From IMG/VR virus record IMGVR_UViG_2648501839_000008: a stretch of DNA of 64,000 nt, one strand, 5' to 3'. Source of the DNA: a virus. Lineage: Duplodnaviria; Heunggongvirae; Uroviricota; Caudoviricetes. The position numbers and the translations under genes were made by a program. Below are positions 3,696-48,022 of this stretch, piece by piece; the first letter of the stretch is position 1; every line of letters begins with the position of its first letter. Below the pieces are notes generated by a model. The model was not told the DNA's origin, did no database searches, and saw only the letters and a list, made by a program, of their open reading frames with translations.

Positions 3696-4055
3696 TCAAC
3701 CTTTCTTCATCAACTCTCGTTTAATTTCATCGGTACGCATCGTAACGTCGGCAGCTGTGATCGCCTCGTTAAGCTTCACGATGTCCTCGATTTCCTGCGG
3801 TGACTTCTCTGCCAGATGGAAAATGGCTGCTCGAATCACGTCAGAACGAGTGAACTTCTCGAAGCGAGGGATGAACTTCATCATCTCCAGCAGTTCGAAG
3901 TATTCGTCTTCCAGTGACATTGTGCGGCTTTTAATTTTCTCTTTGCCACGAGTCGGGCGTCCCTGTGGTCTGACTGGTTGGCGCAAAGGAGTTGTGTTCT
4001 TAGCCGGTGCATCAGGCTCTTTGCGCTTTGCTAGGTCACCCATTTTCATGGACAT
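3696..4055 (-). CDS. ParG-like ribbon-helix-helix partition protein
   Basis: 119 aa, basic disordered N-terminus plus C-terminal RHH-like segment; start overlaps parA stop (TAATG coupling). Confidence 0.45.
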   Translation of the reverse strand: MSMKMGDLAKRKEPDAPAKNTTPLRQPVRPQGRPTRGKEKIKSRTMSLEDEYFELLEMMKFIPRFEKFTRSDVIRAAIFHLAEKSPQEIEDIVKLNEAITAADVTMRTDEIKRELMKKG

Positions 4056-4723
4056 TATTCTTCTTCCTCCAGACTCAACAGATAATCTACAAATTCTTCA
4101 AACTCGGCTTCAGCCTTTTTGTCGCGCTCGCTACCGGTCATTTCGAAGATAGAACGACCAGACTCTTCCGCATCATCGTAGACGTTGCGGTTATATAGAT
4201 TGACTGGCGCAGACTCGATGCCAAACGTCTCGACAATCTCTTTAGCCGCCAGAATGCGAGACACTTGTGATGGCAAAGCCGGGCACTGGTTCATGACCGC
4301 GCGGACCTTCACTTTATCGTTTACATTACGAACATTGTCGATAATAGGATCGATGTCACGCAGAGATTTCAAATCACGACGCTTAGGACGAAGCGGGATA
4401 ATGATAACGTCGGCCATCAGCATCGCTTGTCGCTGAATTTCGGAGTCAAAGCCACCAGCATCTACCACTACAAACTCAGCTCTACCCTGAAGCGATTTTA
4501 GGTGCTTAATGATGTCATCCTGGACGTATGCAAAAGGAATCAGCTCAAGGTCTTCGTTCTGTCGACGGTCTTCACACCAGCTCGTTGTCGTGCGCTGAAT
4601 ATCTATATCGGTAATATAAACCTTCTTCTTCTTTTTGACTTTCAGGCAAACGGCAATTTGCTGGGCAACGGTGGATTTGCCAGGCCCGCCCTTTGTGCCG
4701 CCAACCACAAAGATCTTGGTCAT
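4055..4723 (-). CDS. parA: ParA/MinD-family partition ATPase
   Basis: Deviant Walker A GGTKGGPGKST at the N-terminus; 222 aa, small type-Ib ParA size; RBS AAGGGA. Confidence 0.7.
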   Translation of the reverse strand: MTKIFVVGGTKGGPGKSTVAQQIAVCLKVKKKKKVYITDIDIQRTTTSWCEDRRQNEDLELIPFAYVQDDIIKHLKSLQGRAEFVVVDAGGFDSEIQRQAMLMADVIIIPLRPKRRDLKSLRDIDPIIDNVRNVNDKVKVRAVMNQCPALPSQVSRILAAKEIVETFGIESAPVNLYNRNVYDDAEESGRSIFEMTGSERDKKAEAEFEEFVDYLLSLEEEE

Positions 4724-4893: not shown

Positions 4894-4899
4894 TAATTG

Positions 4900-8876: not shown

Positions 8877-10499
8877 TTATTCTTTAGGTGAATTTAACTT
8901 CGTTTCAAGCTCCTCAACCCTTTTGGTCAATTGCTGAATATGATGAATGAGTGGTACAACCAAACGCTCATACATCACTCCTTCAGCGACCATACCATTT
9001 GAGGAAATATCTTCTGGAGAATCATTATTTGTTGGTTCACGCCAATGGACATATTGCGGGGCAATCTCACCAACCTCTTCAGCAATAAGGCCGTAATACC
9101 CCCAATCCTTTCGGTCACCTCGACAAATTGAACGATACCAAACAGGTCTTAATGACAAAAGTTCATCAGCATATCGATCTTGTAATGTTTCAATATCCTT
9201 TTTATAGCGCCTTGAAGATGTTGAACGCCAAACTGTATTGATACCTGGGTTTGGATCAATGTACATATTGGCACCGCTAGTAGTTGTGCCAATATCCCAT
9301 ATAGCAAACCCTCCACTACCGCCTGATTTGACAACCAGTGTTTCAGCAATAATATCCAGGTTGCCACTATAGCCTGTCAGTGATGATCTGCTTGCATAGG
9401 AACTTAGAAGGTTTGTTACCTCTGTTTTCGTATAAGCATTAAGGTTAGCCGCAGTCAAAGTAATATCGGCAGAGCCATCAAACGCCACACCAGCAATTTT
9501 CCTTGCTGTCTGCAATTTTGTGGCTGTTGCGGCATTACCAGTAGTATTCTGATTACCGGTTGTATTCACACCAGGGATTGAATCCTTAGCAGTATATACC
9601 TGCGCCCACGCTGACCATGCCGCATCTGTGGTATCTCTTCGTGAGCGAATGAAAACTGGCGCATGTGCACCGCTCGTACCACTCCAGCCAATAAGCAACT
9701 CGCCCTCACCAGCAGCACTCGCACCTTTCATGTGCAATACGTTGCCATACGTGGTCGGGTAGCTATTGTTGTACGCCTCGTACATTTGAATGCCAGCAGT
9801 GCCTTGAGTAGAGCCGCTTAATGCCGTAACTCGGCCACGAGATACCAGTGTATTAATGTTGATATCGCCTGAGCCATCAAACTTAACACCATTGATGTTT
9901 CTCGCTGTTTGCAACTTCGTAGCTGTTGAAGCATTACCGTTCAAACTACCATTTACGCCACCAGTCACATTTAGTCCATTACCAATTGATACCGCACCGC
10001 TGGTATTATTAATTGTAATAGGTCGCAAACCGTTCCATGAACCTAATGTGTCTCCTGATGCTGTTAGCATGAAATATGTGTTCGATCCATCATTACGGAT
10101 AAAGAACCCAAAGCTACCGTAAGCAATGCGGAAACCATTTGCATATTTTGAAATGATCTCGCCAGAAGATGTCAAACCTCCAGATAATGTACCACCGGTA
10201 AGAGGTAATGCACCGACATCAGAGGCTGTTGGTTTGTTTTTCGTGTTATATACTCTTCGCCATCCCGGAGAATAATCTGTGCCATTAAATACATAGATAA
10301 ACTCCGCATTAGTGAGAGCACCAGAGACACTCGTCGTTGTGGCCGTTGTTATACGGATCGTATAATTGTTTGAGCTACTACCGTTATTAAATACCTCTAT
10401 AACAGCTCCTGCCAATGGAATAACGCCACAACCAGTTTCACTATTTGGTATGGTTGCACTATTGGCATAGGCCCACGCACTTTGTGTTAAATGCTCCAT
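8877..10499 (-). CDS. Tail fiber/spike protein with C-terminal intramolecular-chaperone (peptidase S74-like) domain
   Basis: GNASTATKLQTAR tail-fiber repeat motifs; C-terminal ...RRYKKDIETL...GLIAEEV... resembling self-cleaving chaperone domains. Confidence 0.6.
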   Translation of the reverse strand: MEHLTQSAWAYANSATIPNSETGCGVIPLAGAVIEVFNNGSSSNNYTIRITTATTTSVSGALTNAEFIYVFNGTDYSPGWRRVYNTKNKPTASDVGALPLTGGTLSGGLTSSGEIISKYANGFRIAYGSFGFFIRNDGSNTYFMLTASGDTLGSWNGLRPITINNTSGAVSIGNGLNVTGGVNGSLNGNASTATKLQTARNINGVKFDGSGDININTLVSRGRVTALSGSTQGTAGIQMYEAYNNSYPTTYGNVLHMKGASAAGEGELLIGWSGTSGAHAPVFIRSRRDTTDAAWSAWAQVYTAKDSIPGVNTTGNQNTTGNAATATKLQTARKIAGVAFDGSADITLTAANLNAYTKTEVTNLLSSYASRSSLTGYSGNLDIIAETLVVKSGGSGGFAIWDIGTTTSGANMYIDPNPGINTVWRSTSSRRYKKDIETLQDRYADELLSLRPVWYRSICRGDRKDWGYYGLIAEEVGEIAPQYVHWREPTNNDSPEDISSNGMVAEGVMYERLVVPLIHHIQQLTKRVEELETKLNSPKE

Positions 10500-13017
10500 T
10501 ATTTTGCAATAACGTCACTAACTGTGCTGTTGTTATTGCTCCGCCATTACTTCCTGTAGTTAACCAACCAGTAGGAGATGCCGGGCAACCTATATTTGCT
10601 GGCGACAAGGAAATATTTGCCGAGCCGTCAAACGACACCCCATTGATAGTACGCGCAGTCTGCAACTTCGTTGCAGTAGCCGCGTTGCCCGTTGTATTCT
10701 GATTACCAGTCGTATTAACACCTGGCAAATTAATATTCGCAGTACCATCAAAGCTCACGCCGCCGATAGTTCTTGCCGTCTGAAGTTTTGTAGCAGTTGC
10801 AGCATTACCAGTGGTGTTCTGATTACCCGTAGTATTTACACCTGGAAGGTTGATATTTGCAGAACCGTCGAAACCAACTCCACCGATAGATCTTGCCGTC
10901 TGCAATTTCGTTGCTGTACTTGCATTACCATTTAATGTTCCGGTGATCCCACCAGTAACAGACAACGGACCTGAAACTGTTCCTCCGGTTGTTGGCAGTG
11001 CTCCAATATCTAACGGCGTCGGTTTCTGATGTGTGCTATACATCGTATAAACAACACCATCGGTAACGCTGGAAGGCTTACTCGCTGAATATGTTGGCGA
11101 TGTATAAATAGAAACTGTCGCATTTGCAGTACAATCCCAATGGATATTTACACTAGTCGCATAATTGCCAATCTCAACGTAAATATCATATGTATCGCCG
11201 GATGTGTTGATCCAGGCGAAATTCGTTAATCCGACGGCTGTACGCTTCCACAAAGCACCGGTAATCCCTTTGGGGTTTCCATTGCCTGCTCGTAGAACCA
11301 GTTCTGAAATGCCTGCCTGATGTGGGGAGCCGACGTTGTAACCAGCGCCACCAATCAATGCGATGTAAACGATGGAACTCGCTTGTGGCATGGTAACCGT
11401 AGCCAGTTTGAACCACCCAGCCCCGCCAGAGAAAGACATCGTTACTGAATTTAAAGTACCAATATCTTTCGGCGTTAATGTGATATCCGCAGTCAGTGCT
11501 TTACCGTTAACTTTTCGGTTAGATGGCACCCTGCTATTCGCATTGTCATTGGCTGCTTTAACTGCTTTTGGCGTTGCGGCCAGCGATTCACTGGTGCTGT
11601 CGACAGCACTGCTAAGTTTCACAACACCTTTGGTGGTAAGGCTTGCGTCTTCCATCGCAACGGCACCGGCAATCTCTTCAGCACGATCAGCGGCAGCTTC
11701 TGCACGGGTCGCAGCGGATTCAGCAGCAGCTTTGCTCTGAGATGCAGCCGTCGCACTGCCTGCCGCCTCTGTTGCTTTCGTGGATGCCGTTGAAGCACTC
11801 CCCTTCGCAGCTGATGCCTGCTTGGTCGCCTCATCTTTTGAAGCGGATGCCGAGGTGGCTGATGCAGACGCAGAACTTGCAGATTCAGCAGCTGCCTCTT
11901 TAGAGGAAGCGGCATTATCTTCAGAAGCCTTTGCATTTGTTTCAGAGGATTTTGCTGCCGATGCTGAATTTTTAGCGGCTGTAGCCTGATTCGTCGCCTC
12001 AGTCGCTTTTGCGGTAGCTGTTGTCGCTGACGACGACGCGCTTTCCGCAGATTTTCCTGCCGCAGTTGCACTTGATGAAGCACTATCCGCACTTGCTGAG
12101 GCTGCGCTTGCTGACGCTTCTGCCGCAGATTTCGAACTGTTTGCAGACGATGCACTCTGCCCGGCTGCCGTTTCAGATGCTTTTGCGTTTGTCTCTGACG
12201 CTTTTGCTGCCTTAGACGAATTTTCAGCTTCTGTTGCAAATGATGCAGCCGCGTTTGCACTCGATGAAGCGTTAGTCTCTGATGCTTTGGCTGCATCCTT
12301 AGATGCAGAGGCACTGGACGCAGATGTTGCTGCCTCCGATGCTTTGGTCGACGCTACAGACGCTGATTCTGCTGCCGCTAGATATGCTGATTCTGCGTTC
12401 GTTTCAGATTTTTTCGCAGCAGTTGCACTCGCACTTGCGGCACTTTGTGAGGATGCCGCAGCGGATGCACTTTGAGACGCTTGAGAGGCTTTTTCTCCAG
12501 CGGTATTGGCGCTTTCTGCTGCTGCGGCAGCACTGGCCGCCGCCTCACGAGCTTTGTCACCAGCGGCATCAATCGCGTCAGTGTTATTTTTATACCACTC
12601 AACGTTTTCGTTGTGCTCGTTGACGATCTGCATCAGCGGCTTAACGGTCACTTCTGTACCGTCTTCACGCTCGATTGTCACCTCATCCAGAGCAGTCAAC
12701 CAACTACGCATGGACTTGGAATCAGCCGACATACGCGACATTAGCGCGGTAAAGCGCGCGCTAAACTGTGTTAAGTCGCCTTCATAGGTAGTAATGATTC
12801 GGCACGGAACTTCAGACTGAGTTTCACCGGTATAAGGTTCTGAGAGAACAATGTTCGTATCGCTTGTTACGCGCTTGATCTCATACAGCTTATTGTCGGG
12901 GCCAATGACGATCATCCCCGGCAACACACCATTAGCTGTTACGTTCCAGGCTGTCCCAACCCCAACCAGAGTATTACTACCCTGTGTAAATGTGATAGTA
13001 CCTTCCCTGTACCACAT
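10459..13017 (-). CDS. Side tail fiber protein (852 aa)
   Basis: Conserved tail-fiber N-terminal region, long Ala/Ser-rich repetitive shaft, repeated GNASTATKLQTAR...FDGSANI motifs. Confidence 0.7.
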   Translation of the reverse strand: MWYREGTITFTQGSNTLVGVGTAWNVTANGVLPGMIVIGPDNKLYEIKRVTSDTNIVLSEPYTGETQSEVPCRIITTYEGDLTQFSARFTALMSRMSADSKSMRSWLTALDEVTIEREDGTEVTVKPLMQIVNEHNENVEWYKNNTDAIDAAGDKAREAAASAAAAAESANTAGEKASQASQSASAAASSQSAASASATAAKKSETNAESAYLAAAESASVASTKASEAATSASSASASKDAAKASETNASSSANAAASFATEAENSSKAAKASETNAKASETAAGQSASSANSSKSAAEASASAASASADSASSSATAAGKSAESASSSATTATAKATEATNQATAAKNSASAAKSSETNAKASEDNAASSKEAAAESASSASASATSASASKDEATKQASAAKGSASTASTKATEAAGSATAASQSKAAAESAATRAEAAADRAEEIAGAVAMEDASLTTKGVVKLSSAVDSTSESLAATPKAVKAANDNANSRVPSNRKVNGKALTADITLTPKDIGTLNSVTMSFSGGAGWFKLATVTMPQASSIVYIALIGGAGYNVGSPHQAGISELVLRAGNGNPKGITGALWKRTAVGLTNFAWINTSGDTYDIYVEIGNYATSVNIHWDCTANATVSIYTSPTYSASKPSSVTDGVVYTMYSTHQKPTPLDIGALPTTGGTVSGPLSVTGGITGTLNGNASTATKLQTARSIGGVGFDGSANINLPGVNTTGNQNTTGNAATATKLQTARTIGGVSFDGTANINLPGVNTTGNQNTTGNAATATKLQTARTINGVSFDGSANISLSPANIGCPASPTGWLTTGSNGGAITTAQLVTLLQNNGAFNTKCVGLCQ

Positions 13018-35574: not shown

Positions 35575-35841
35575 TTACATCACCAGTAACTTCGCTTTGG
35601 CTCGACCTAAAGTGGTTAACCCAAGAGTTCGGCGGTGATAGCGATTGTCACTGCGTTGGCGCGTATGCCCTTTCTCCACAAGCCCCTTTTTTATCAGAGC
35701 GCGAATTGAGAACTGGATACTTTGCTTGGTTGTCTTGTACGGCAAAACTTCAAGCAATTCGTCCAGATCAAGTAGATGACCTCGCTCATAACCGAGATTG
35801 AGCGTTTTGATGATGTCCTTTTGTTTATCGGTTAACGTCAT
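35575..35841 (-). CDS. Small winged-helix-like DNA-binding protein (last gene of the five-gene operon)
   Basis: 88 aa, basic; ATG at 35841, 9 nt after the GNAT stop. Confidence 0.4.
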   Translation of the reverse strand: MTLTDKQKDIIKTLNLGYERGHLLDLDELLEVLPYKTTKQSIQFSIRALIKKGLVEKGHTRQRSDNRYHRRTLGLTTLGRAKAKLLVM

Positions 35842-36741: not shown

Positions 36742-37403
36742 GAATGGACCTCATCGTGACTACCATTGTGATATTCCACCTTCACGCGTTCTTTGTAGTG
36801 CTTGGTGATCTGCATATCCGGGCGCAGCGCGTTCTTCAGGTCTTCGTGAGTCGTCGCCACCATTACCGTCGCACCAACCTTTCGAGCGGCACGCTGGAGG
36901 TTAGACGCCACAACCTGAGCGGTTACACGGTCGAGAACAGCGCCGAACTCGTCAGCAGCCCACACTTTAGCGCCTGACTCAATCAGTTTGGCAATCTTGA
37001 GACGATATTTCTGGCCGTCTGACATTTCAGAAGGCTTGCGAACAAACAGATATGCATCGTTCAGACCAGCCATAGATAACAACCCAAGCGCATCACTGGT
37101 CGTTTTGCCCAACTGATCGATGACGTTAACCTCATTATCGAAGGTAAAATCATCGATGGAGGCTACAGACAGCCCTTCATCCTTCATCTGTCGTTGCAAC
37201 TCGCGCAGCACAACGGATTTGCCGGAACCGGATTGGCCGGTGATGTACACCACATCGCCCTGCTTCACTTCCAGCTCCAGATTGTCGTAAAGCGTCCACT
37301 CTTTTTCGTCCAGGCCAAGCCCGAACGACTCAGCGATTTCCAACGTGCGCGTGGTTTTATTTACGCGTGTCTGAAACGATACGTTGATGATGTATTTGCT
37401 CAT
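36738..37403 (-). CDS. ABC-type ATPase (stand-alone nucleotide-binding domain)
   Basis: Walker A GQSGSGKS, signature-like SDGQKYR, Walker B VWAADEF, H-loop TTHE; 221 aa. Confidence 0.65.
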   Translation of the reverse strand: MSKYIINVSFQTRVNKTTRTLEIAESFGLGLDEKEWTLYDNLELEVKQGDVVYITGQSGSGKSVVLRELQRQMKDEGLSVASIDDFTFDNEVNVIDQLGKTTSDALGLLSMAGLNDAYLFVRKPSEMSDGQKYRLKIAKLIESGAKVWAADEFGAVLDRVTAQVVASNLQRAARKVGATVMVATTHEDLKNALRPDMQITKHYKERVKVEYHNGSHDEVHS

Positions 37404-38068
37404 GCAGCCATCTCCCCGGAAGAGATCTTCTCCGCATATGCCACAAATGCGTCTACCCCGCTTTCTCCCGTCATTTCTTCCATGTGGGCAAGCAAATCAC
37501 CAACAACAATGGCAGAGCCAGCAGGGAGCGTTTTAAAGCCCAATACGTCGACAACACGTACTTCTTCCGCTGCAACTTCACGACTGATCTCGGTGTGTTC
37601 ATCCTTCTGTCGTTTAGTTTCTTCGCCAAGATCGATAACTAGCGAGTCGGTGTCCATTTCTTCTGTCATACTGCCAACGAGAACATTCAACTCACGCTCT
37701 TCAAAGCCGAAAACCTCGATATCGTCCAGAACAAGCGACTCAAGCTCTTTCTGTAGCTTAATTGCATCGTAATCAATGCTGGCAAGTCGGTTATCTTCAA
37801 GGCGCTTCGCACGAACCTCGTCATCACTGAGATCATCGCGAACAATAACCGGTACGCGCTCAAGTCCAGCAAAAATTGCAGCCTCACGGCGGCCGTGGCC
37901 AGTAATAATTACGTCGTTCTTATCGACCGTAATTGGCTGGTCAAATCCGCGCTTTTTAATGGCTGCGGCTAGATCTCGGATCTGCTGTTCATCATGCTTT
38001 TTGGCATTCATCTCATAGGGAATAAGATCTGCCGGGTCGCGATATACGATTTCAAACTTTTTGGTCAT
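37400..38068 (-). CDS. ParB-like nuclease-domain protein 1
   Basis: ParB-box-like ITGHGRREAA; start trimmed to ATG 38066-38068, overlapping the upstream stop (TAATG). Confidence 0.6.
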   Translation of the reverse strand: MTKKFEIVYRDPADLIPYEMNAKKHDEQQIRDLAAAIKKRGFDQPITVDKNDVIITGHGRREAAIFAGLERVPVIVRDDLSDDEVRAKRLEDNRLASIDYDAIKLQKELESLVLDDIEVFGFEERELNVLVGSMTEEMDTDSLVIDLGEETKRQKDEHTEISREVAAEEVRVVDVLGFKTLPAGSAIVVGDLLAHMEEMTGESGVDAFVAYAEKISSGEMAA

Positions 38069-38748
38069 TACATACGCTCCTTGTAGTAGTCGACCAGCCA
38101 CACCAGAGCCTCACCAGCGTTCTCCATTTCATTACCGGTGTTAATAGCCTGCTCTTTGATGATGTTTTTTATGGTTTCTGCAACACGATCTGACGCATCG
38201 AAAGTTACTTTGAAGCGCATGGTCTGATGTTCCGCACCCACACGTTCGGTTTTCTCTCGTTTGTCGGTATCGACAGGCTCATCACTACCACGAGACAACG
38301 CCTCCAGTGCTTCAAGGTCGATTGCCGCCTCTTTTGCTAAAACCATCGAGATTTCGTCGTCATACGGGGCGATTTCAGACAGTTGATAGTCAAGTTCTGA
38401 CTGAATTTCTTCAATGAAGCGTTGCAATGCGATTTGGTCGTCTTCACCGTATCGCTCGTTGTCCACCAGTGACATCTGTTTAGCTACGACATCGCTAATT
38501 TTGCCCACAGAAAGCACCGGAACCGTTGAAATTCCTTGCTCAATAGCAGCACGCCAGCGATGTTCGCCGCCGAGGATTTCAAAAAATCCATCTTCAAGTT
38601 CACGAGCCAAAATTGGCTTAAAAAAGCCCAATTTTTCGATAGAACCTTTCAGTTTTTCAAAATTCTGCGCACCAACCGAATTGGTGTTCCAGGTATTCGG
38701 GCGAAGGTTGGCAACATCAACCTGCAAAATCGTGATTTTTACATCCAT
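38068..38748 (-). CDS. ParB-like nuclease-domain protein 2
   Basis: ParB-box-like EILGGEHRWRAA; 226 aa. Confidence 0.6.
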   Translation of the reverse strand: MDVKITILQVDVANLRPNTWNTNSVGAQNFEKLKGSIEKLGFFKPILARELEDGFFEILGGEHRWRAAIEQGISTVPVLSVGKISDVVAKQMSLVDNERYGEDDQIALQRFIEEIQSELDYQLSEIAPYDDEISMVLAKEAAIDLEALEALSRGSDEPVDTDKREKTERVGAEHQTMRFKVTFDASDRVAETIKNIIKEQAINTGNEMENAGEALVWLVDYYKERM

Positions 38749-38830: not shown

Positions 38831-40390
38831 ATGACTGTTCGGATTGTATCTAACGCAGTAAATGCGCTTATTTCTGGCGCAGATGACAAGGTAAAGCAAC
38901 TGGTGCAGCAAATGTTGAGCTACGAAGTCGAGACTGGCGACTGGAAGGGCACAAGCACGATGTTCAACTGGAGTAAAAACTCGTTCCCTGCTGGCTTTGC
39001 CAAGCCTGTAGCGGCGAACTTGAACAAGGCGGGCATCAAATGTGTTCATATCCGCAAAGACAAAGCCCCGGCGCTTGGTAAACCAAATCCGGCGGTTAAC
39101 CCATTCCCATACAATCCTGATTATGCGTATCAGGATCAGACTGTGGAAACACTGGTTCGAGAGGGAATGATGATTGCGCAGATCGCTACTGGTGGCGGGA
39201 AATCTAACGTTGCCTGCAAAGCAGCTGCACGTATCGGTCGAATGACATTATTTTTAACAACCCGCTCTGTTCTGATGTTTCAAATGGCCGAAAACTTCCA
39301 GAGATCCATCGACTACCGCGCCGAAAATGGCGAACCGTGGTTAAAAGACCAAAAGGTTGGAGTCATTGGCTCGGGTGAGTTCCAGGTATCACGACATATC
39401 AACGTCGCTACAGTTCAAACTCTTGCAAGTTTCCTCGAAGAACCACCACGCGATGCAACACCAGATAAGAAAAGCTACCACCTCAAACGTCGGGAGTTGG
39501 TGAAACGCTTCCTTTCAAGTGTCTCTCTTCTTATTCTGGAAGAGGCGCATGAGTCTTCAGGCTCAAATTTCTATGACATCGCCAGATTATGTGTGAACGC
39601 GGACTATCGTCTGGCGCTTACAGCCACGCCGTTCATGAAGGATTCGACGGAAGCCAACATGCGCCTGATGGCGGTGGCCGGGCGAATTGAAATTAAAGTC
39701 ACAGAAAAGTACCTGATTGATCGAGGCATTCTGGCAAAGCCGTACTTCCTTTATCATAAAGTTGCCTACAAGCCAGACGAGGCCAGAATCAAGGCCGAAC
39801 TTGCCAACAAACACCTCAATTTTAGAGTTGGTATGAGCACCGCCTACCAAAAGGCTTATCAGTTGGGGATCGTGTATAATTTGGGACGTAACGAGGCCAT
39901 TGTTCGCGAAGCATTGCTCTATAAGCAACATTCTCTCAATTGTATGACTCTGGTTCGTCTTAAACGCCACGGGCAAATCCTGATGGAAATGATGAAAGAG
40001 TCCGGCCTTAGAGTTGACTTCATCTATGGGGAATCTAACCAGGCGACAAGGCAAGCAAAGCTGAACAGTTTAGCGTCTGGAGAAATAGATGTTTTAATAG
40101 GCTCGACTATTCTGGATGTCGGTGTTGATGTGCCAAGCGTTGGTGCGGTCATTCTTGCTGGTGGTGGGAAAGCAGAAGTTGAAATGAGGCAGCGTGTCGG
40201 TCGTGGCTTACGAGCCAAAAAAAATCAGGCAAACGTGTGTTTTATCACTGATTTCATTGACATTAGCAACAAATACCTGTTGTCTCACTCTTATGAGCGA
40301 AAACACATCATCGACACCACACCTGGCTTTGCAGAAGGTGTATTGCCTATTGATGGAGCATTCGATTTTGGAGTTCTGAAACGAGATTAG
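38831..40390 (+). CDS. SF2 (DEAD/DEAH-box type) helicase
   Basis: Motif I ATGGGKS, motif II ILEEAHES, motif III LTATP, motif VI QRVGRGLR; RBS AAAGAGG. Confidence 0.7.
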   Translation: MTVRIVSNAVNALISGADDKVKQLVQQMLSYEVETGDWKGTSTMFNWSKNSFPAGFAKPVAANLNKAGIKCVHIRKDKAPALGKPNPAVNPFPYNPDYAYQDQTVETLVREGMMIAQIATGGGKSNVACKAAARIGRMTLFLTTRSVLMFQMAENFQRSIDYRAENGEPWLKDQKVGVIGSGEFQVSRHINVATVQTLASFLEEPPRDATPDKKSYHLKRRELVKRFLSSVSLLILEEAHESSGSNFYDIARLCVNADYRLALTATPFMKDSTEANMRLMAVAGRIEIKVTEKYLIDRGILAKPYFLYHKVAYKPDEARIKAELANKHLNFRVGMSTAYQKAYQLGIVYNLGRNEAIVREALLYKQHSLNCMTLVRLKRHGQILMEMMKESGLRVDFIYGESNQATRQAKLNSLASGEIDVLIGSTILDVGVDVPSVGAVILAGGGKAEVEMRQRVGRGLRAKKNQANVCFITDFIDISNKYLLSHSYERKHIIDTTPGFAEGVLPIDGAFDFGVLKRD

Positions 40391-40392
40391 TT

Positions 40393-40671
40393 ATGAGCGA
40401 AAAGAAAACAACTTATTGTCAGGTAGCATTGTCTGATAAGGCCAATGACAAACTTGGAAAGTTTCAAGTGAAACTAAAAGAAAAAAATATCAAAATGTCT
40501 AAGGCTGAAGTCATAAATACCATTCTGGAACAATTGACAATGGCCGACTTTGACAAGGTTATATCTTCTGTCGGGGCTTCCGCTAAGACTCGTGAGAAAA
40601 TCATGCGTATCTATGAGAACTCTAATATGACAAAGGAAGATCTCGAAACGCTATTAAGCAGATTAAAATAA
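40393..40671 (+). CDS. Small ribbon-helix-helix-like DNA-binding protein
   Basis: 92 aa; predicted beta-strand then two helices (TYCQVAL...KLKEKNIKMSKAEVINTILEQL). Confidence 0.4.
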   Translation: MSEKKTTYCQVALSDKANDKLGKFQVKLKEKNIKMSKAEVINTILEQLTMADFDKVISSVGASAKTREKIMRIYENSNMTKEDLETLLSRLK

Positions 40672-40697
40672 TCACGCTATCAATTAGGGAGACAAAG

Positions 40698-41162
40698 ATG
40701 AAGTCTCCCATACTGTTCACTTTCTGTTCTAAAACTATCATGAAATACTCGCTTCTCCCTCTACTAACGTTACCAGTGTTGATGCTTACCGCGTGCCAAT
40801 CACGCCCAATATCAATCCATGACGCCAAACCAGCACCGCAGGCCAAAGTGTTCAAGTATCAAAGCGCAGCGCCAGCTACGTTGGTGGTAATGAGAGACAC
40901 AGGTTTTGTAGGAGCTGGATGTGATGCTTCCATTTTCATCAACGGCGAAACTGTCGCAAAACTGGCTACAGGCGAAAAAGCGACTTTCCATTTAAATGCC
41001 GGAGAATTAATTGTGGGTGCATCTCTTGAAGGTGCAGGTTTATGTGCTCTAAACCCCGCTCGTCAAGAGCGAGAAACGACTCTGAAGAATGGAGACACAA
41101 AAGCGTTCAGGGTGTTCACCAGCAATTCTGGTGACATCGACATTCTGCCAACAACTCTGTGA
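40698..41162 (+). CDS. Lipoprotein
   Basis: Signal peptide with lipobox LMLTAC; GGGAG RBS. Confidence 0.5.
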   Translation: MKSPILFTFCSKTIMKYSLLPLLTLPVLMLTACQSRPISIHDAKPAPQAKVFKYQSAAPATLVVMRDTGFVGAGCDASIFINGETVAKLATGEKATFHLNAGELIVGASLEGAGLCALNPARQERETTLKNGDTKAFRVFTSNSGDIDILPTTL

Positions 41163-41166
41163 TGAC

Positions 41167-41691
41167 ATGACAACCAAAGATATTACCTACGGTATCCAAG
41201 CTGAACTCTGGCCGCGAGATTACACTAACGTTGAAAAACTACTGATGTTCTGGCGCAGAGAACAAATTCCTGTAAGGGTCACTCTCGAAGATGGCCAGGC
41301 GTTTTGCATGTACGTTTATGGCCTCATGCCATCTCGTAACAAAGTTGACCTTTGCCCAGCCCCTTTTGACAAAGAAAATCGTATAAGGCTCCCACTTGAA
41401 CGCATTAGTACAATTGAATCAGGTGTGGTTGACAGTATCGCTCACGATTTCAAAGGTCGACTAACAGTTCACCCTGATTATGTCGATAATCGGCCATCAC
41501 GCCGCGATTTTTTTGCAATTTGCAACCAAGCCTACAAAGCAAACAAATCTATAAGGGTGTACATGGCGGATGGCCGTGAAATTGAGGGGGTGTCAGCAGG
41601 CGCAGATGCTTGTCAGGTTACACTACGTGTCGAGAACGGTAGAAAAATAGTTGTTTTGTTCGATTGGGTTGAACGAATTTTGCCTTTTTGA
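41167..41691 (+). CDS. Hypothetical protein (174 aa)
   Basis: ORF track trimmed to the ATG at 41167 after the upstream stop. Confidence 0.4.
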   Translation: MTTKDITYGIQAELWPRDYTNVEKLLMFWRREQIPVRVTLEDGQAFCMYVYGLMPSRNKVDLCPAPFDKENRIRLPLERISTIESGVVDSIAHDFKGRLTVHPDYVDNRPSRRDFFAICNQAYKANKSIRVYMADGREIEGVSAGADACQVTLRVENGRKIVVLFDWVERILPF

Positions 41692-41694
41692 GTT

Positions 41695-42003
41695 ATGAAA
41701 TCGATATTGTTACCACCATTATTTTTACTTTGCTCAGTTGCGGCAAATGCAATGGACTATAAGCCTGTCATTCAGTCGCTGATGAATGACGTGTGCTCAA
41801 CGTCTCAGAATGTATCAGTTTGCATGTATCAATTTTCGGCAGCCGTAAAAGCAGGAAAAGCGATAGGTGAGAATGTGGAACTGTGTAAGAAAGTGGCAAA
41901 TGAAGAAAGGGCAATGTTGGATTGCGAATCTAGCGAGTCATCGGCACAGTTCGTTGATGCGCTATTTGACACCAATCGTAAGGCTGTAGAGTCTGTTCAA
42001 TAA
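41695..42003 (+). CDS. Small secreted Cys-containing protein
   Basis: Signal peptide MKSILLPPLFLLCSVAANA; 102 aa. Confidence 0.45.
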   Translation: MKSILLPPLFLLCSVAANAMDYKPVIQSLMNDVCSTSQNVSVCMYQFSAAVKAGKAIGENVELCKKVANEERAMLDCESSESSAQFVDALFDTNRKAVESVQ

Positions 42004-42194
42004 ATCTATAAGGTTAATAACCGGCTAAGTCCGGTTATTATTTTTCACATCACTTCTTTATATCTACAAATCAAATAACCTAAATATATATAAGGTCTAA
42101 AGCCGCAATCGATTATTTATTTAGGGAACACCTTCGACGATCTCGCTTTTATTTCTAGGACTTTCATCCCTGCAAAAAATTTTAAAAAAAACAC

Positions 42195-42222
42195 TTGCAA
42201 TCTTTTTTCGCGTATCGATAAT
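42195..42222 (+). promoter_or_regulatory. Sigma70-type promoter of the AT-rich moron
   Basis: TTGCAA-16 bp-GATAAT with an upstream A-tract (UP-like), about 65 nt before the ATG at 42288. Confidence 0.55.
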
Positions 42223-42287
42223 TGAACTCGTCGAAAGCGAAGACGCTAACGACAATAAATTTTAAATTTACATAAGGAAAAATTATC

Positions 42288-42938
42288 ATGGCTAACATTA
42301 TCATTTCTAAAAAATCCATCATTGAAGCTGCTTCCATTGTATCCGATGAACTGCGCGAAAAAGCAGATCTGGCAACTCAAACATATAACGAACATTATAA
42401 AAATGGTACGCACACTAAAGCAGACAAAGCAAATATGCAAGCTGCGACCACTAAACTTGCTTACTTCATCAACAACGTCGTAAACGCAGTAGAAGACGAA
42501 AAATTATGCTCTGTTTTCTACTATGCGATTAAAGCAAGCAAACAAGCGCCAGAAGTATTTTTCCGTGATGCAATGACTAATAGTTATTCTCTGGAAAAAC
42601 TGGTTTATCTGGTTAAATCAATTAAATCTGGTAAATGCGTTTATTCCATCGCTGATATGTCAGGATCTCGTGTATTCGCTTTAATCGATATGATTAACGA
42701 CGAGATCGACACGTTCACCAATGGCGCTGTTTTCGATTTAATGAATGAAGCTAAAAAAGCGTGTGAAATTAAATTGGACGCTGGCTATACTCAAGCCAAC
42801 CAGTTGATCAATCTTTGCGAACGTCTTGGACTTGTTGAAAAAGTCAAAGGAGCTGGGAGCGCGAAAGCTGGTACTCAGCAATATCGCTTCATTAAAAATG
42901 ATTTCTACAATTATTTAGCTGATGCTTTCAAAGCGTAA
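42288..42938 (+). CDS. Hypothetical protein (216 aa), AT-rich moron gene 1
   Basis: ORF track; RBS AAGGAAAAA; codon usage much more AT-rich than the flanks. Confidence 0.5.
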   Translation: MANIIISKKSIIEAASIVSDELREKADLATQTYNEHYKNGTHTKADKANMQAATTKLAYFINNVVNAVEDEKLCSVFYYAIKASKQAPEVFFRDAMTNSYSLEKLVYLVKSIKSGKCVYSIADMSGSRVFALIDMINDEIDTFTNGAVFDLMNEAKKACEIKLDAGYTQANQLINLCERLGLVEKVKGAGSAKAGTQQYRFIKNDFYNYLADAFKA

Positions 42939-42986
42939 TAAATGGAATCAAGCGCCCATAGTGGGCGCTTTAAAGGAGCTTTAAAG

Positions 42987-43190
42987 ATGGTCAGCTATGA
43001 CAAGATCCGCGCGGAATATCGCGCAAAGTATCGCGCTTATAAACTGGAATTAATCGATGATTTGATCGCGCAACGCGACCAATTAAATTTTACGTTTTCT
43101 GATTTGCTTAACAGCAAGCGAGATTGCAAGCGCAAACGTGAATACTTACGTTTAAGCGCATTAATCGGAAAACTTCAAAATTCTATTTAA
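42987..43190 (+). CDS. Small basic coiled-coil protein (67 aa), moron gene 2
   Basis: ATG at 42987 with AAAGGAG RBS; preceded by hairpin AGCGCCCATAGTGGGCGCT. Confidence 0.4.
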   Translation: MVSYDKIRAEYRAKYRAYKLELIDDLIAQRDQLNFTFSDLLNSKRDCKRKREYLRLSALIGKLQNSI

Positions 43191-43209
43191 TTTTTTAAGG
43201 AGCTTAATC

Positions 43210-43440
43210 ATGTTTGTTCTTATCGCTGGCGTTAACGTCCATAATGAATATTATGTTAATCGCATCGCTGGGATCGCTGGTTACGCTGGGCGCGCAGTCG
43301 AGCTTATAGATGAAACGACGCGCAAAATTGACTTATTGAGCGACCAGGAGCGAAAAAAAGCAGACGTGAACGACGCTGATATATTTTTAATGTTAAAAGC
43401 GTTTGTAGAAATGGGATTTAAAATCAGTTTACACAAATAA
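43210..43440 (+). CDS. Small protein (76 aa), moron gene 3
   Basis: ORF track; RBS AAGGAG. Confidence 0.4.
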   Translation: MFVLIAGVNVHNEYYVNRIAGIAGYAGRAVELIDETTRKIDLLSDQERKKADVNDADIFLMLKAFVEMGFKISLHK

Positions 43441-43445
43441 AATCG

Positions 43446-43470
43446 AGCGCCCACTATGGGCGCTTTTTTC
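43446..43470 (+). terminator. Rho-independent terminator of the moron
   Basis: AGCGCCCACTATGGGCGCT followed by TTTTTT. Confidence 0.7.
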
Positions 43471-43924
43471 GTTTCCAATACTCCCACCATAACGCGCCAT
43501 CATTAGCGCGTTTTTTATTGTCTTTAACTCACTCCAACAACATAAAAATAAGCGCCAAAATAACGCCATAGACGCGCTTTTATATCCTTACCAGTACATA
43601 CCCATTACTTAACACATTAACGCGCTTAAAACGCGTTATATTGCGCTATAGAGTATGGTTAATCATTGGCTTTTAGTCTTGCTTTATGATCCGCGTTTAT
43701 TTGTCGGCGCGGATCGGCATTTTGTTTTGTTCCGTATCCGCTCGCGTATTATGTGCGCGTGATTTTTCACATAATCACACCACTTAATCACGTATGTGAT
43801 TATGCTACGAAAGAAATCTGGATGTCTCAGGCGACGAAAGTCATCATAATTTTCGCCGCTCACCTGTCCGACAACCGCTGGTTGGATTCCACCAGCTTCC
43901 CGATGTTTTTTCTACATAAAGGCG

Positions 43925-44048
43925 AATGCAGCCGTTTCCCGAAAAAATCCTGGCCGTTTCCCGTCGGCTCATGAATGCTTTCCTCGCCGTTTCTGAAAAT
44001 TTCCCTGCGGCAGCTGGTGGCTATAGATAAAGGGCCGTTTCTGGCCCT
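43925..44048. repeat. Iteron-like direct repeats (GCCGTTTCCCG/GCCGTTTCTG family), cluster 1
   Basis: At least 4 copies (about 43930, 43953, 43985, 44033); same repeat family as 46820-46960. Confidence 0.5.
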
Positions 44049-44056
44049 CTTCTCAG

Positions 44057-44539
44057 TTACACGCCATCAAGGATGTGGATGCGGTTGCTTGCGTATACAT
44101 TCAGCATAAAGTTAGCGCAAAACAGTTTCCATGTGTCAACGCCAGCGGTATACGTAATGTTTTTGCATTTAATCGCATTGTTGGCGATCCGCATCCCCTG
44201 CGATACTGCTTCATCGTCGGAAAATTTGAACGACGATTGAGTTTTAATCCAGAAAGAAATCTGCGTAGCGAACTCAATCAGCTTGGACTGGCAGAATCGC
44301 CCGGAGCGCACCGGAAAGACGAACGTTCCGAATCCAGAATTTACCACATACGCTTTCTCAAATACCCGCGAGTAACGACGATTGCCAATGATGTCGCGTG
44401 CAATAATGCATTTTTCTTGTGCTGACAGTTCTACCGTCTCATTGTCGCGCCATGCACCAAGTACTCGTTTTTCAATGTCAGAGAACGTTACAGCGATATT
44501 GCCATGTGCGGGTGCGTTTACAGTAGCGATAAAATTCAT
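44057..44539 (-). CDS. Hypothetical early protein (160 aa)
   Basis: ORF track; terminator hairpin GGGCCAGAAACGGCCC just 3' of the stop. Confidence 0.4.
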   Translation of the reverse strand: MNFIATVNAPAHGNIAVTFSDIEKRVLGAWRDNETVELSAQEKCIIARDIIGNRRYSRVFEKAYVVNSGFGTFVFPVRSGRFCQSKLIEFATQISFWIKTQSSFKFSDDEAVSQGMRIANNAIKCKNITYTAGVDTWKLFCANFMLNVYASNRIHILDGV

Positions 44540-44560
44540 GATTAATTCCTTATCGTAAAT

Positions 44561-44593
44561 AACAAATTGTTTTCTTGTTTGTGTTAATTATCG
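44561..44593 (-). promoter_or_regulatory. Class-A site (palindrome plus extended -10-like element)
   Basis: aacaaattgttttct + gtgttaattatcg. Confidence 0.5.
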
Positions 44594-44743
44594 TTGTACG
44601 AATAAGGCGTCAAAGTGGAAAGTTGCGGTAGCCGGACGGGAACAGGTGGGTTTGTCGGTTGCCTGGAGGTAAGAGGTTGGTGTTTTTAGCCTGAGGGAAG
44701 CAGGATGGTCATTTAAGGCCACCAGCATTGGTGACCTTATTCT

Positions 44744-45031
44744 TCAGTGGAGCAGACCGATGTCGATGGTATCCCCTGAATCATCCACACGGATCATCAG
44801 CATGGCAAAGGCGTTTAGTGGATAGCTTGCGTGCCATTCAGGGAAGCGGTCATCTCGCATGAAGTCGGCAATGTCGTAAACGCATCCCTCAAAGTGGAAG
44901 AATCGCGTGCTTACCTGCTCATCATAATCCACATGATCCATTTCTTGCTGTTCTGTTTCCGGCAAGTCCAGCCATGATTCGAGGAATACATTTTGTGCTT
45001 TGGTGGTAATGGTGAAATCAGTCATGAGCAT
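44744..45031 (-). CDS. Small highly acidic early protein (95 aa)
   Basis: ORF track; about 20 Asp/Glu versus 5 Lys/Arg. Confidence 0.4.
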   Translation of the reverse strand: MLMTDFTITTKAQNVFLESWLDLPETEQQEMDHVDYDEQVSTRFFHFEGCVYDIADFMRDDRFPEWHASYPLNAFAMLMIRVDDSGDTIDIGLLH

Positions 45032-45044
45032 ATCCTCACTGCGT

Positions 45045-45110
45045 AAACATGTTGTTTTCTTGTTGTTGTAATTATCGCAGCGAGATAAAGGCAGAAAACA
45101 AATTGTTATC
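45045..45110 (-). promoter_or_regulatory. Class-A sites (two palindromes flanking TGCGATAATTA)
   Basis: aaacatgttgttttct + tgttgtaattatcgca + gaaaacaaattgttatc. Confidence 0.5.
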
Positions 45111-45153
45111 GGGCATAAGAAAATGGCGCGGTTTACGCGCCATTCAAAGAGGA

Positions 45154-45549
45154 TTAAGCGAATACGCTTTCAGGGATTAAGGTGCCGGCAGGAATGCCAG
45201 AGGTAATGCGCAGACCGTACTGGCCAATCCAGGTGGTGCTGGTGTTCAGGCTGGAGGCGAATACGGTGTTAACCATATTCATCATGGTTTCAAACACCTC
45301 TTCATCAACCTGGCGGAAGTAGTTCTCGATTTTCAGCAGCAGCGGGTCAGTTGCATCGAGAATGGACTGGTATTGAGTCGCGTACTCGCCGCCGGAGGCA
45401 TCACCTTTACGCACGATCGTACTGGCCTGGACTTCGGCACCAGTTTCGGTGTTGTACGTAACAACGGTGATTTTTGCCACATTCTTACCTTCGGCGGTTT
45501 CAGAGGCATAGTAAACATCAACTGTCAGTTTTTCGCGTTTAACGGTCAT
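45154..45549 (-). CDS. Hypothetical early protein
   Basis: ORF track trimmed to the internal ATG at 45549. Confidence 0.4.
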   Translation of the reverse strand: MTVKREKLTVDVYYASETAEGKNVAKITVVTYNTETGAEVQASTIVRKGDASGGEYATQYQSILDATDPLLLKIENYFRQVDEEVFETMMNMVNTVFASSLNTSTTWIGQYGLRITSGIPAGTLIPESVFA

Positions 45550-45591
45550 TTCACTCTCCGTAGTGTATTGGTTATTTTTATATTCTATGAT

Positions 45592-45613
45592 CGTAAGTAT
45601 GTACTTACAATAC
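45592..45613 (-). promoter_or_regulatory. Class-B palindromic site preceded by a terminator hairpin (45615-45641)
   Basis: cgtaagtatgtacttacaatac; adjacent GCCCCG...CGGGGC hairpin with a T-run on the minus strand. Confidence 0.4.
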
Positions 45614-45675
45614 AAAAAAGCCCCGTAAGGATGGCGGGGCTGTCGTACTGTCGACTAATTACCACTTGCACATTA

Positions 45676-45987
45676 TCAGGCTATTGCCATCACTGATGCT
45701 CTCTGAATTTCTTGCTGGGCCACGCGGTTAACTTCCATCAAGGCCAGTTCGAGCTGATGTTCCGGCCACATTCTTTGAAATGCCACCCATCCTTTTCCAC
45801 GCTGGCGACGAACATTCATTACATAACGAGTAAAGGTGTTTTTATCGAAAGACACCGCTGTTTCACGGAACAGACGAATAGAAGTTCCATTGGCAACGAT
45901 GTCTAGCAAAGTTAATTGAGCAACCAGTGCAGGCTTCTCTTTTCTCTTCTGGTCTTTGTCCAGACCAAGAACCAATGATTTTTTCAT
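45676..45987 (-). CDS. Hypothetical early protein
   Basis: ORF track trimmed to the ATG at 45987. Confidence 0.4.
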   Translation of the reverse strand: MKKSLVLGLDKDQKRKEKPALVAQLTLLDIVANGTSIRLFRETAVSFDKNTFTRYVMNVRRQRGKGWVAFQRMWPEHQLELALMEVNRVAQQEIQRASVMAIA

Positions 45988-45997
45988 CACAACTCCG

Positions 45998-46040
45998 TAA
46001 ACAACTTGTTTTCTCAATGGCGTAAATAATACCAGTAAGA
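45998..46040 (-). promoter_or_regulatory. Class-A site
   Basis: taaacaacttgttttct. Confidence 0.5.
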
Positions 46041-46140
46041 AAACGGCTACAAAGCATAATGATCAGGTGCATGATCGATATGCAGGTTCCTCCCAGCGGC
46101 TATAGAGAAATTAAGCCAGCAATGCTGGCTTTGGTTGGGA

Positions 46141-46470
46141 TTACGCGAATACCTCAAGAAACTCCTGAACGTCCCAATGCTGGACGAGGTGAAGATAGAC
46201 CTTAGAAATCACGTCATTTTCGCTATCGCATGTGAAGTAGTACTTCTGGCTGCGGTTGTATGTGTCCACACAAAATTCGCTCATATCCATAAAGTCAGCA
46301 TCTTCACCCATGTCGCAAATCATCAAAGCAGGTGCGTCATCACGAGTCATCAGCTCAAGCACCCACCGCGAATTGATCAGAGTGGAAGACCAACCTTCTA
46401 ACTCATAAAACTGATCAAACTCTTTTTGAGTTAATTTCTTGATTTGGTTGATGTCGATATTTGCAAACAT
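46141..46470 (-). CDS. Small acidic early protein
   Basis: ORF track trimmed to the ATG at 46470 (AAGGA RBS); the track start lies inside the class-A palindrome. Confidence 0.4.
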   Translation of the reverse strand: MFANIDINQIKKLTQKEFDQFYELEGWSSTLINSRWVLELMTRDDAPALMICDMGEDADFMDMSEFCVDTYNRSQKYYFTCDSENDVISKVYLHLVQHWDVQEFLEVFA

Positions 46471-46482: not shown

Positions 46483-46520
46483 AAACAACATGTTTTCTTG
46501 ATGGTGTTATTATCGCAATA
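46483..46520 (-). promoter_or_regulatory. Class-A site
   Basis: aaacaacatgttttct + gatggtgttattatcgcaat (TGcGATAAT on the minus strand). Confidence 0.5.
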
Positions 46521-46819
46521 ACGCACAGGCGAAAAAGGATTTTATTCCGGTGAATGTGGTTTTGGCAGTGAGTTTTCAGGTTCAGTACCGAGTACACTTT
46601 TTACATTATTCTGATTTAGTGGCTGGTGGGCAGAATAATCCTCTCCCCGAAAACCTACTGAAATCGATTGTGACCCGTTGGCTGTCTGGCACAATTACGC
46701 TGTAGCTGGGCATTCAGAGGGAATCCAGCGGTAAGCAAGTCCGCCTACGTGAGCGCCTCTCTTCTTCCCGCACATTACAGGTGGGTAGCCGCAACTCTCC
46801 CTCTCGCTATACCGGTACG

Positions 46820-46960
46820 CCACCTTTCCTGAACCGGCATCGAGCCTTCTCCCGAAATCCACACAGGCAACTCGACCGTTTCCCTGAAAACCTCCAGCCG
46901 TTCCCCGAAGGCAACCCAGCCGTTTCTGTAGCGGGATGCAGCCTTTTCCCTGTATGGACC
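46820..46960. repeat. Iteron-like direct repeats with ~21-22 bp periodicity, cluster 2
   Basis: Five to six copies of cAGCCgTTtCCCtGaa-like units (46842, 46873, 46895, 46917, 46938). Confidence 0.55.
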
Positions 46961-46999
46961 GAAGGCTGACCGTAGGGGTGTTACGGGGGATAAAATCAG

Positions 47000-47960
47000 G
47001 AGTTGAATAAATACGAAAAAGGAGGCGACACCCCTCCTTCCCTCCCCACTTATACATACCTGGCTTCTTCGCTATGCATGTTGTGTTTTATCTGTCTCAA
47101 CCTCTCTATAGGCGTTAATGCTCACTCCTTCCAGAATGTTCTATACGGCGACTATTTCTGTTGGTGAATTGGGTGTGTTGTTTTCTCTGTCGGTGTATGT
47201 GGTTTCGTTCGTTTTGCGGTGGTTCTTCTATGGGGTGTTCTCGTCGTTTTGGTGATTGTTCTTCTCCATGTATGGAGTAATGGCAGGTGGGCGAATCCTT
47301 TCGTTATTGTGTTTGAGTTGTTTGTCTGGAGTGTGTGAAGGGCTTTTGTAGTTATTCGTGTATTGGGTAATGGCGTTTCCCGTGATTGTTATGTTTCGTG
47401 TCTTTTGGGATTGAGAGAATCCTTGCGGTTACAGGCTTCGTTGGGTTTTCAGTGATTCTGGTGTTTCTTCGCTGTTTGGGGAATGGCGTGTCGTGGGTAT
47501 CGCGCGTATGAATGTTTTCGGATTGCCTGTGAAAGTTAGGTTGGCTGTCCGGTAGCCTGGGGAGAAGAGGTGGGTCTTTTCGGTAGCCTGCCATAAAGAG
47601 GTTGGTTGTTTTGGGGAATGGCATGTGTGTTATTTAGTTGTTTTGTTATAGCTGAAAATAAGTTGTTTATATAGTTATGTAACGCAATGGGAGTGATTTT
47701 GAGCGTGTGTTTTTTCTTGGTAGTGTGTTGGGTCGTCTGTGGTGAAAATTGGACGCTGTGGCGCTGTCTGCTGCGTAGAATTACGGGTATAAGAAGTGAT
47801 GTGTGAATACGTCAATTTTTTAGACCAAATCGGGTGAAAGCGTTGACGTTTCGTTGATCTGTTATTTAGTTGTTTTCTTATTGGTATAAACAACGTTAAC
47901 CTATTGATATTTAAAGGTGTGATTGCAGGTATGGAAGAAGAGTAGTGGCGATCAACGGAT
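47000..47960. repeat. Noncoding, strand-biased (G+T-rich on plus) degenerate repeat region
   Basis: No credible ORF; recurrent GGGGAATGGCGTGT-like and CGGTAGCCTGG..GAGGTGGGT-like units; the latter also occur at 44615-44690. Confidence 0.5.
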
Positions 47961-48022
47961 TCTTATAGAAAAGAATCAAATTGTGACCGCCATTATCAAC
48001 TGATTGATTAAGCTAATTACAC

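Follow-up and report, generated by a model that had tools for sequence, protein, structure and literature searches.

Two arrays of a conserved 10-bp motif bracket the variable small-gene block of SSU5-type phage-plasmids and look like protein-binding sites

Two arrays of a short asymmetric repeat, about 2.9 kb apart, flank a set of small genes in a phage-plasmid of the SSU5 type, and the best-supported reading, as judged from sequence comparison, is that they constitute a conserved pair of protein-binding arrays bracketing a gene block that is itself variable. They are contained in a 64,000-nucleotide stretch of a viral record (IMGVR_UViG_2648501839_000008), which is termed the window here. 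The cis control sites, lytic origin and lysogeny circuit of SSU5-type elements are essentially unmapped so far, and in the literature consulted no description was found of these repeats or of a lytic origin for the family. Defined here is a 10-bp motif that is limited to the two arrays and conserved supergroup-wide, together with a named candidate for the protein that would bind it, and the combination provides a handle on control of the variable gene block and on switching between the plasmid and phage states.

The 4.4 kb around the repeat-containing gap has 96-99% identity to Escherichia phage Cyrano (pLF82), and equally to PhiR41_1 and about 170 E. coli plasmids, each of roughly 108 kb, with a 65-80% match in more than 500 plasmids from Klebsiella, Enterobacter, Salmonella, Citrobacter, Cronobacter and Yersinia. 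Because of the Cyrano, PhiR41_1 and plasmid identities the window is assigned, on sequence grounds, to an SSU5-type phage-plasmid of E. coli. The supergroup concerned (pHCM2, pMT1, pKpn, pECOH89, pLF82/Cyrano) has already been described, is the largest of the enterobacterial phage-plasmids and is common in clinical E. coli, Klebsiella and Salmonella (PMC7969092). Alignment of the window to Cyrano runs from 33,093 down to 1 and then from 108,379 down to 79,754, and all genes around the gap are labelled 'hypothetical' in every record inspected. A + strand block extending from 38831 to 43440 (a UvsW-like helicase, a lipoprotein, an FljA-like regulator, a 216-aa protein and two small proteins) converges on a long minus-strand block whose last gene, 44057..44539, specifies a 160-aa protein (phrog_1641) with no assigned function, and so the 590-bp non-coding gap between them, 43470-44057, separates two 3' ends. 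The original prediction placed this region between a moron terminator and the early genes; it is between convergent 3' ends, and is not upstream of the small genes. The interval 44057-46470, to the right of the gap, is occupied by five small genes on the minus strand, and a conserved promoter box, GATAAT..AAGAAAACAAnnTGTTTA, stands ahead of each. Next come the second cluster of repeats (46819-46957), then a hairpin resembling a minus-strand terminator (47016-47042), and then a 900-bp region of skewed composition. Pfam, PHROGs and PDB sequence searches returned no function for the proteins neighbouring the gap. FljA is the post-transcriptional repressor of phase-1 flagellin, and the FljA-like protein of the + strand block (41089-41691) has a Pfam Flag1_repress (FljA) match with E = 2.5e-84 and also a weak Hfq-like match; it is kept in all SSU5-like lineages, pMT1 included.

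The repeat has the consensus (A/G)GCCGTTTCC(C/T), with GCCGTTTCCC as its core. Cluster A, the one within the gap, has its copies exclusively on the + strand: four at 43931, 43953, 43986 and 44034 and two weaker matches at 43977 and 43997. Their TTTC(C/T) cores have the relative positions 0, 22, 44 (weak), 55, 65 and 103. Directly upstream of the first repeat is a 16-mer, TTTTCTACATAAAGGC (43908..43923). Following it on the + strand are R1, CAGCCGTTTCCCGAAAA (43929..43945; 18.8 bits), R2, TGGCCGTTTCCCGTCGG (43951..43967; 16.5 bits), and, within 43977..44010, the weak copy GCTTTCCTC at 43977, R3, GCCGTTTCTG (43986-43995), and R3b, AAATTTCCCTGCGG at 43997; a further GCCGTTTCTG at 44034-44043, also on the + strand, spans stem and loop of the hairpin at 44032-44047 considered below. 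Cluster B (46819-46957) has six + strand copies of the same family, spaced by 23, 31, 22, 22 and 22 bp, and there is an outlying degenerate + strand copy, CCTCTCCCCGAAAACC (46640..46655), that is beside a Chi site and is kept in most relatives. The expectation that the gap would contain at least four repeats matching a cluster at 46820-46960, and that two clusters of one family flank small genes, is borne out by these positions. Where 1.14 exact occurrences of GCCGTTTCY would be expected in the 64-kb window there are five, a number reached by one of 100 shuffles, with all five sites (43931, 43953, 43986, 44034 and 46919) on the + strand. A position-weight scan of the window gave nine matches of at least 13.8 bits, all of them within 43929-44045 or 46842-46952, and in the complete 108-kb Cyrano genome strong matches are at the same two loci only. 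A gapped-pattern scan of viral contigs returned SSU5-like loci only, besides unrelated simple or coding repeats. In their sequence features the repeats look like protein-binding arrays, and strongly conserved ones.

Conservation was followed in two sets of relatives. In the closer one, comprising elements of E. coli, Klebsiella, Enterobacter, Salmonella and Citrobacter and the Yersinia pestis plasmid pMT1, per-column identity of the gap is 86%, and neither R1-R3 nor the 16-mer TTTTCTACATAAAGGC varies; the 16-mer, which recovered 41 related viral contigs, is missing from the most diverged lineages. The distant lineages are K. pneumoniae pKSB1_7G.2 (L068), a Logan contig (L070, from SRR23468752) and two from IMG/VR, L095 and L086; apart from the motif their gap sequences cannot be aligned, and the adjacent proteins are 30-50% identical (33% for the 160-aa protein, 50% or 36% for the 216-aa protein, 36% for the FljA-like protein, with 52% for a ParG-like protein encoded elsewhere in the element). 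Across seven diverged lineages GCCGTTTCCC is the sole invariant island of the spacer: R1 has it unchanged in all seven of those aligned, R2 keeps CCGTTTCCC in six of the seven, and the E. coli, Klebsiella and L095 types retain R3 and R3b. In the distant lineages GCCGTTTCCC is found twice ahead of the 160-aa gene's terminator, with another four or five copies upstream of the small genes. Without exception the two arrays enclose the minus-strand small-gene block, though its content varies from 5 to 11 genes and its extent from 2.75 to 5.1 kb. Cluster B is present in all relatives except pMT1, where an IS1541-associated deletion took both it and the skewed region; elsewhere its copy number is 3 to 7, and PhiR41_1 and the Citrobacter element have clean deletions of 22-bp units. 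Changes in copy number by whole 22-bp units fit the expectation for tandem binding sites. Helical phasing was considered as a sign of cooperative binding on one face of the DNA and was set aside: the E. coli and Klebsiella types fit it (22 and 11 bp), but copies in distant lineages are 17-37 bp apart, so that a 22-bp phase is not a conserved requirement.

Much of what else is in the gap has a more ordinary explanation. Three palindromes had been claimed there and all are present, including TAATCAC-GTAT-GTGATTA at 43785-43802; AACGCGC..GCGCGTT proves to be part of a terminator, and the other two are confined to the E. coli lineage. The + strand operon is ended by a bidirectional intrinsic terminator at 43445..43471, whose hairpin, AGCGCCCA-cta-TGGGCGCT followed by a T run, is unchanged in seven relatives, and then by a second + strand terminator at 43491..43518, in which the AACGCGC/GCGCGTT palindrome (43491-43512) forms a 7-9 bp stem that precedes a T run and that is invariant among relatives while the loop varies (TCAT, ACAA, TTGT). 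On the minus strand the terminator hairpin of 44057..44539, GGGCC-gtttct-GGCCC with its T run, is at 44032..44047. Around the same CGTTTC the stems differ in three lineages (GGGCC..GGCCC, GGGGC..GCCCC and AGCG..CGCT), and L068 and L070 have an unrelated GGGAGA..TCTCCC hairpin without the repeat motif. A G+C-rich hairpin with a T run just 3' of a stop codon, conserved in relatives, is what was found in these cases, with the stems either conserved or compensatorily changed, and the structures at 43445-43471, 43491-43518 and 44032-44047 are ordinary terminators, the last of which additionally bears a repeat copy. Where the E. coli lineage has TAACGCG..CGCGTTA (43618..43640), relatives instead have direct repeats GTTATAGCG / GTTTTAGCG; in L070 the spacer between the 160-aa and 216-aa genes has, in the place of the palindrome, about nine tandem 8-bp TTTAGC units (NNTTTAGC), which from their sequence are a second repeat family of lineage-dependent copy number. 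Operator-like inverted repeats, CATAATCACA/TGTGATTATG with TAATCAC-N4-GTGATTA, occupy 43770..43804 and overlap a weak match to a minus-strand promoter; the TAATCAC-N4-GTGATTA palindrome is not conserved, since relatives have TCACATAATCACAT at its site. On sequence criteria, then, the palindromes are two intrinsic terminators plus operator-like repeats, the latter limited to the E. coli lineage, and what remains of the gap apart from the arrays is two terminators of the + operon, one of the minus-strand gene, and sets of repeats that vary with lineage.

A candidate for the protein that would recognize the arrays is encoded close by. The gene for the 216-aa protein (42288..42938, + strand; phrog_1513) is directly upstream of cluster A in every lineage, with its end about 500 bp away, so that a gene for a putative DNA-binding protein adjoins the sites in all of them, and inspection of the sequence gives it a sigma-70-like promoter of its own, TTGCAA-N17-GATAAT. 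The protein has no Pfam match and no PDB sequence match. Its structure modelled from a 19-sequence alignment (pLDDT 84, pTM 0.75) has an N-terminal helical hairpin and bundle and then, at the C-terminus, a canonical winged helix, comprising helix 126-137, a strand, helix 145-158, a recognition helix at 168-179 (TQANQLINLCER) and a wing at 183-201; the recognition helix is invariant among relatives. What makes the protein a candidate is adjacency and co-conservation alone, and by these it is probably the reader of the arrays. The wider proposal, that the two arrays are paired DNA-binding sites for an element-encoded protein with the 216-aa winged-helix protein as the best candidate, is advanced tentatively, its chances being put somewhat below even. 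The GCCGTTTCC(C/T) copies at 43929-44045 are one of two arrays of a short asymmetric motif; under the proposal, a sequence-specific protein of the element would bind the double-stranded sites at both, and could bridge them through its helical N-terminal domain; and the bridging would regulate or insulate the intervening genes as well as the convergent transcription that meets at the gap. Counting against the 216-aa protein, winged helices of the MarR and ArsR types usually bind palindromes and not direct repeats. A further point against the proposal is that no motif copy overlaps a recognisable promoter; the arrays bracket genes each of which has its own promoter box. A more ambitious version, considered rather doubtful, is that the arrays and the 900-bp skewed region together make up an undescribed cis control module in which a winged-helix bridge silences or insulates the small-gene block in the plasmid state or, alternatively, defines the lytic origin. 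If true, it would tie the switch from plasmid to phage to a DNA loop.

Other functions for the arrays have to be weighed against binding by the 216-aa protein, and two of these concern replication. In the original prediction the pair of clusters was likened to an origin plus an incompatibility locus. Such a layout, in which the repeats would be plasmid-replicon iterons and one of the clusters would serve copy control or incompatibility, is that of P1 or RepFIB, and takes its appeal from there being two clusters of the same family with 22-bp spacing in the E. coli lineage, but it was not borne out and has next to no probability left. No rep gene is between or beside the clusters, and inspection of the five genes between them and of their neighbours disclosed no Rep, Par or other recognisable domain in the between-cluster genes. 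The RepA of Cyrano (CYRAN_63, 60,633-61,688) has no homologue in the window; its gene is beyond the window's limits, at a distance of about 37 kb from cluster A, and to either side of it are iterons, CTCTCTATAGTGGATA, phased at 21 bp, together with DnaA boxes and GATC runs, which is a textbook RepFIB layout; that iteron is unrelated to GCCGTTTCCC and has 0 matches in the window. Further, GCCGTTTCCC is identical in relatives typed as rep_cluster_488, IncFIB and rep_cluster_2469, i.e. across three replicon types, and pMT1 is maintained without cluster B. Since the replicon was found in Cyrano and its motif is missing from the window, the reading of the arrays as RepA iterons was rejected and a wrong lead is removed: on this evidence they are not the plasmid's replication origin. 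The fallbacks offered in the original prediction, a centromere or an operator, retain some probability. An origin used in the phage mode is a different matter, though still unlikely. It would have one phage initiator binding both arrays as cis elements of lytic replication, with the skewed region also involved, and a pattern of one motif at two separate loci is indeed seen, the arrays being initiator-like direct repeats a few kb apart that are conserved with the phage core and not with the variable plasmid replicon. The gap has several other repeat families, GATC-containing repeats among them, the large conserved unannotated region of extreme strand skew adjoins cluster B, the element has a T4-like replication and recombination set and no mapped lytic origin, and both cluster B and the skewed region are gone from pMT1, which has ceased to be a phage. 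Set against this, the genes for initiator, helicase and primase are about 43 kb away instead of adjacent, cluster A is at a gene convergence and not a divergence, and the 216-aa protein is unlike the two-winged-helix Rep initiators. Neither array has a marked AT-rich unwinding element or a DnaA box beside it (none was found on reading 43480-44060 and 46500-47100, where GC content is 0.39-0.57), and cumulative GC skew is monotonic, with no replication switch seen at the arrays.

The remaining alternatives to a pair of sites read by the 216-aa protein invoke other partners. As short direct repeats on one strand, i.e. an array of repeated sites, the arrays could be centromere-like partition sites dispersed from the par operon and bound by the ParG-like or the ParB-N-domain proteins, and the parA and parG-like genes are without an obvious adjoining repeat array of their own, no centromere-candidate array being found upstream or downstream of them in 3696-4900. 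The ParG-like protein also occurs, at 90-100% identity, in the same genera as the arrays (Klebsiella, Escherichia, Enterobacter, Salmonella, Citrobacter and Cronobacter), Yersinia being the one array genus without it. The probability of this is nevertheless low: 39 kb separate the arrays from the par operon, whose promoter has an unrelated box, AAGAAAACAAGTTGTTT; the ParG-like protein is 52% identical in pKSB1_7G.2, where the motif is unchanged, and known centromeres normally diversify along with incompatibility; and cluster A is intact in pMT1, which lacks the ParG-like protein, though this last point is weak because pMT1 diverged recently. The same invariance can be turned into an argument for a conserved factor of the enterobacterial (Enterobacterales) host that the element recruits. 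Pairings of an element-specific protein with its operator, iteron or centromere usually diversify, so the invariance argues for a partner that is not co-evolving, and a 10-bp core unchanged across Escherichia, Klebsiella, Enterobacter, Salmonella, Citrobacter, Yersinia and Buttiauxella, while nearby element proteins are at 30-50% identity, would fit a host factor too. However, no E. coli regulator is known to have the consensus GCCGTTTCCC, among the closest being those of YpdB, GGCATTTCAT, and AlgR, CCGTTCGTC, and the neighbouring winged-helix protein shows the same invariance in its recognition helix, which accounts for the conservation without a host factor; a host partner is improbable. Even less probable is action of the repeats in RNA, with GGGAAACGG motifs in minus-strand read-through transcripts binding or titrating an RNA-binding protein such as CsrA or the FljA-like protein. 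Both arrays are just downstream of a minus-strand terminator, the minus strand of each has about twice the expected frequency of GGA, the gene for an FljA-like RNA-binding regulator is 2 kb distant, and the presence of a copy in the terminator hairpin of three lineages with different stems leaves room for a role at the RNA level. But there is no evident promoter for such a transcript and no covariation support, and it is the whole of GCCGTTTCCC that is conserved and not GGA alone. An Rfam search gave sub-threshold, chance-level matches only, neither strand of cluster B gives a fold signal (z +0.24 and +0.57), and the z of -2.6 for cluster A is due to the terminator together with a 9-bp pairing not found in relatives; on these three counts a structured RNA was rejected.

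Parallels with known systems are instructive both for what is shared and for what is not. Like P1 and RepFIB, where oriR-incC and incA flank repA, the element has two clusters of direct repeats on one strand a few kb apart, with a spacing, here in the E. coli lineage, of about 22 bp. Unlike them, it has no rep gene between the clusters and no adjacent DnaA boxes, its RepFIB-type replicon is about 37 kb off and uses another iteron, and the motif is constant across replicon types. P4 ori/crr and SPP1 oriL/oriR are two-part phage origins bound by an initiator, and have in common with the present case one short motif at two loci several kb apart; P4, in addition, is like the SSU5-type element a phage able to live as a plasmid. 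The present arrays differ from these in having no identified initiator gene and no evident unwinding element. In the phage-plasmid N15 the cis sites are likewise among phage genes and far from the par operon, but the N15 SopB sites, a dispersed centromere, are single-copy inverted repeats, whereas those here are asymmetric direct repeats in arrays that have no clear link to the ParA/ParG-like pair. Asymmetric phage repressor operators in multiple copies are represented by those for P1 C1 and by O1-O3 of the Mu c repressor. Both share with the SSU5-type arrays a motif of about 10-17 bp that is not palindromic and occurs in several copies, a nearby winged-helix protein with a helical oligomerisation domain, and sites that flank genes of the lytic type; they differ in that here no overlap with a promoter is seen, there are two arrays only instead of many scattered operators, and the annotated repressor of the element is encoded elsewhere (CYRAN_45).

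The 900-bp non-coding region next to cluster B (47050-47950) is conserved across the SSU5 supergroup (L007, L008, L010, L011 and L068) and annotated in no record. T accounts for about 41% of its + strand, G for 33%, A for 14% and C for 12%, with a GC skew of +0.45 and an AT skew down to -0.58. It has 4-6 copies of GGGTAATGGC(G/A), a 31-bp tandem pair at 47545-47606, and two small-gene promoter boxes facing the minus strand near 47885 and 47655; it is bounded by the minus-strand terminator-like hairpin at 47016-47042, and is lost in pMT1. The possibility that the CA-rich minus-strand RNA of 47060-47950 is an Hfq sponge of (A-R-N)n type was tried and dropped, there being no enrichment over shuffles, and large Klebsiella plasmids that match 47550-48010 proved uninformative, the match being an IS-bounded fragment.

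Several other features of the window were noted. A near-palindromic box, AAGAAAACAAnnTGTTT, has 31 matches in the window at up to three mismatches against 4.1 expected (examples being at 1003, 4759, 35419, 35444, 44560, 45045, 45999, 46483, 49697, 49744, 62464 and 63193). It is positioned just downstream of -10-like hexamers ahead of small genes, parA and other operons, and the distribution suggests a global operator or promoter element of the phage-plasmid. The window has 14 Chi sites (GCTGGTGG) and the 108-kb genome of Cyrano has 25 where, by our own arithmetic, about 2 and 3.3 would be expected, a density equal to that of the E. coli chromosome. One pair, 43889(-)/44013(+), flanks cluster A in the orientation that would stop RecBCD from either side, and further sites are at 46622(+), upstream of cluster B, and 44719(-). 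As a functional feature the pair was discounted: the whole element is host-like in Chi density, the left site is shifted in relatives and the right one is missing in two.

With respect to partition, the element has a type Ib ParA (4055..4723) and, as its partner, a 119-aa ribbon-helix-helix-like, ParG-like protein (3696..4055), the latter being annotated in Cyrano as a RelE/ParE toxin. Beside the terminase genes there is a conserved five-gene minus-strand block, 35851-38748, that specifies two proteins with ParB-N/Srx domains (37400..38748), two ABC-type ATPases and an 88-aa DNA-binding protein (35575..35841), all 66-87% identical even in the diverged pKSB1_7G.2. Between the par and replication genes, 1950-3653 on the minus strand encodes a 567-aa P-loop NTPase of the KAP family, and because Cyrano does not align to the window across this stretch, it may be a defence-type insertion. 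Lastly, a 120-bp tandem repeat, in 2.3 copies of 75% identity, is found at 10658-10930 within the tail-region ORF 10459..13017.
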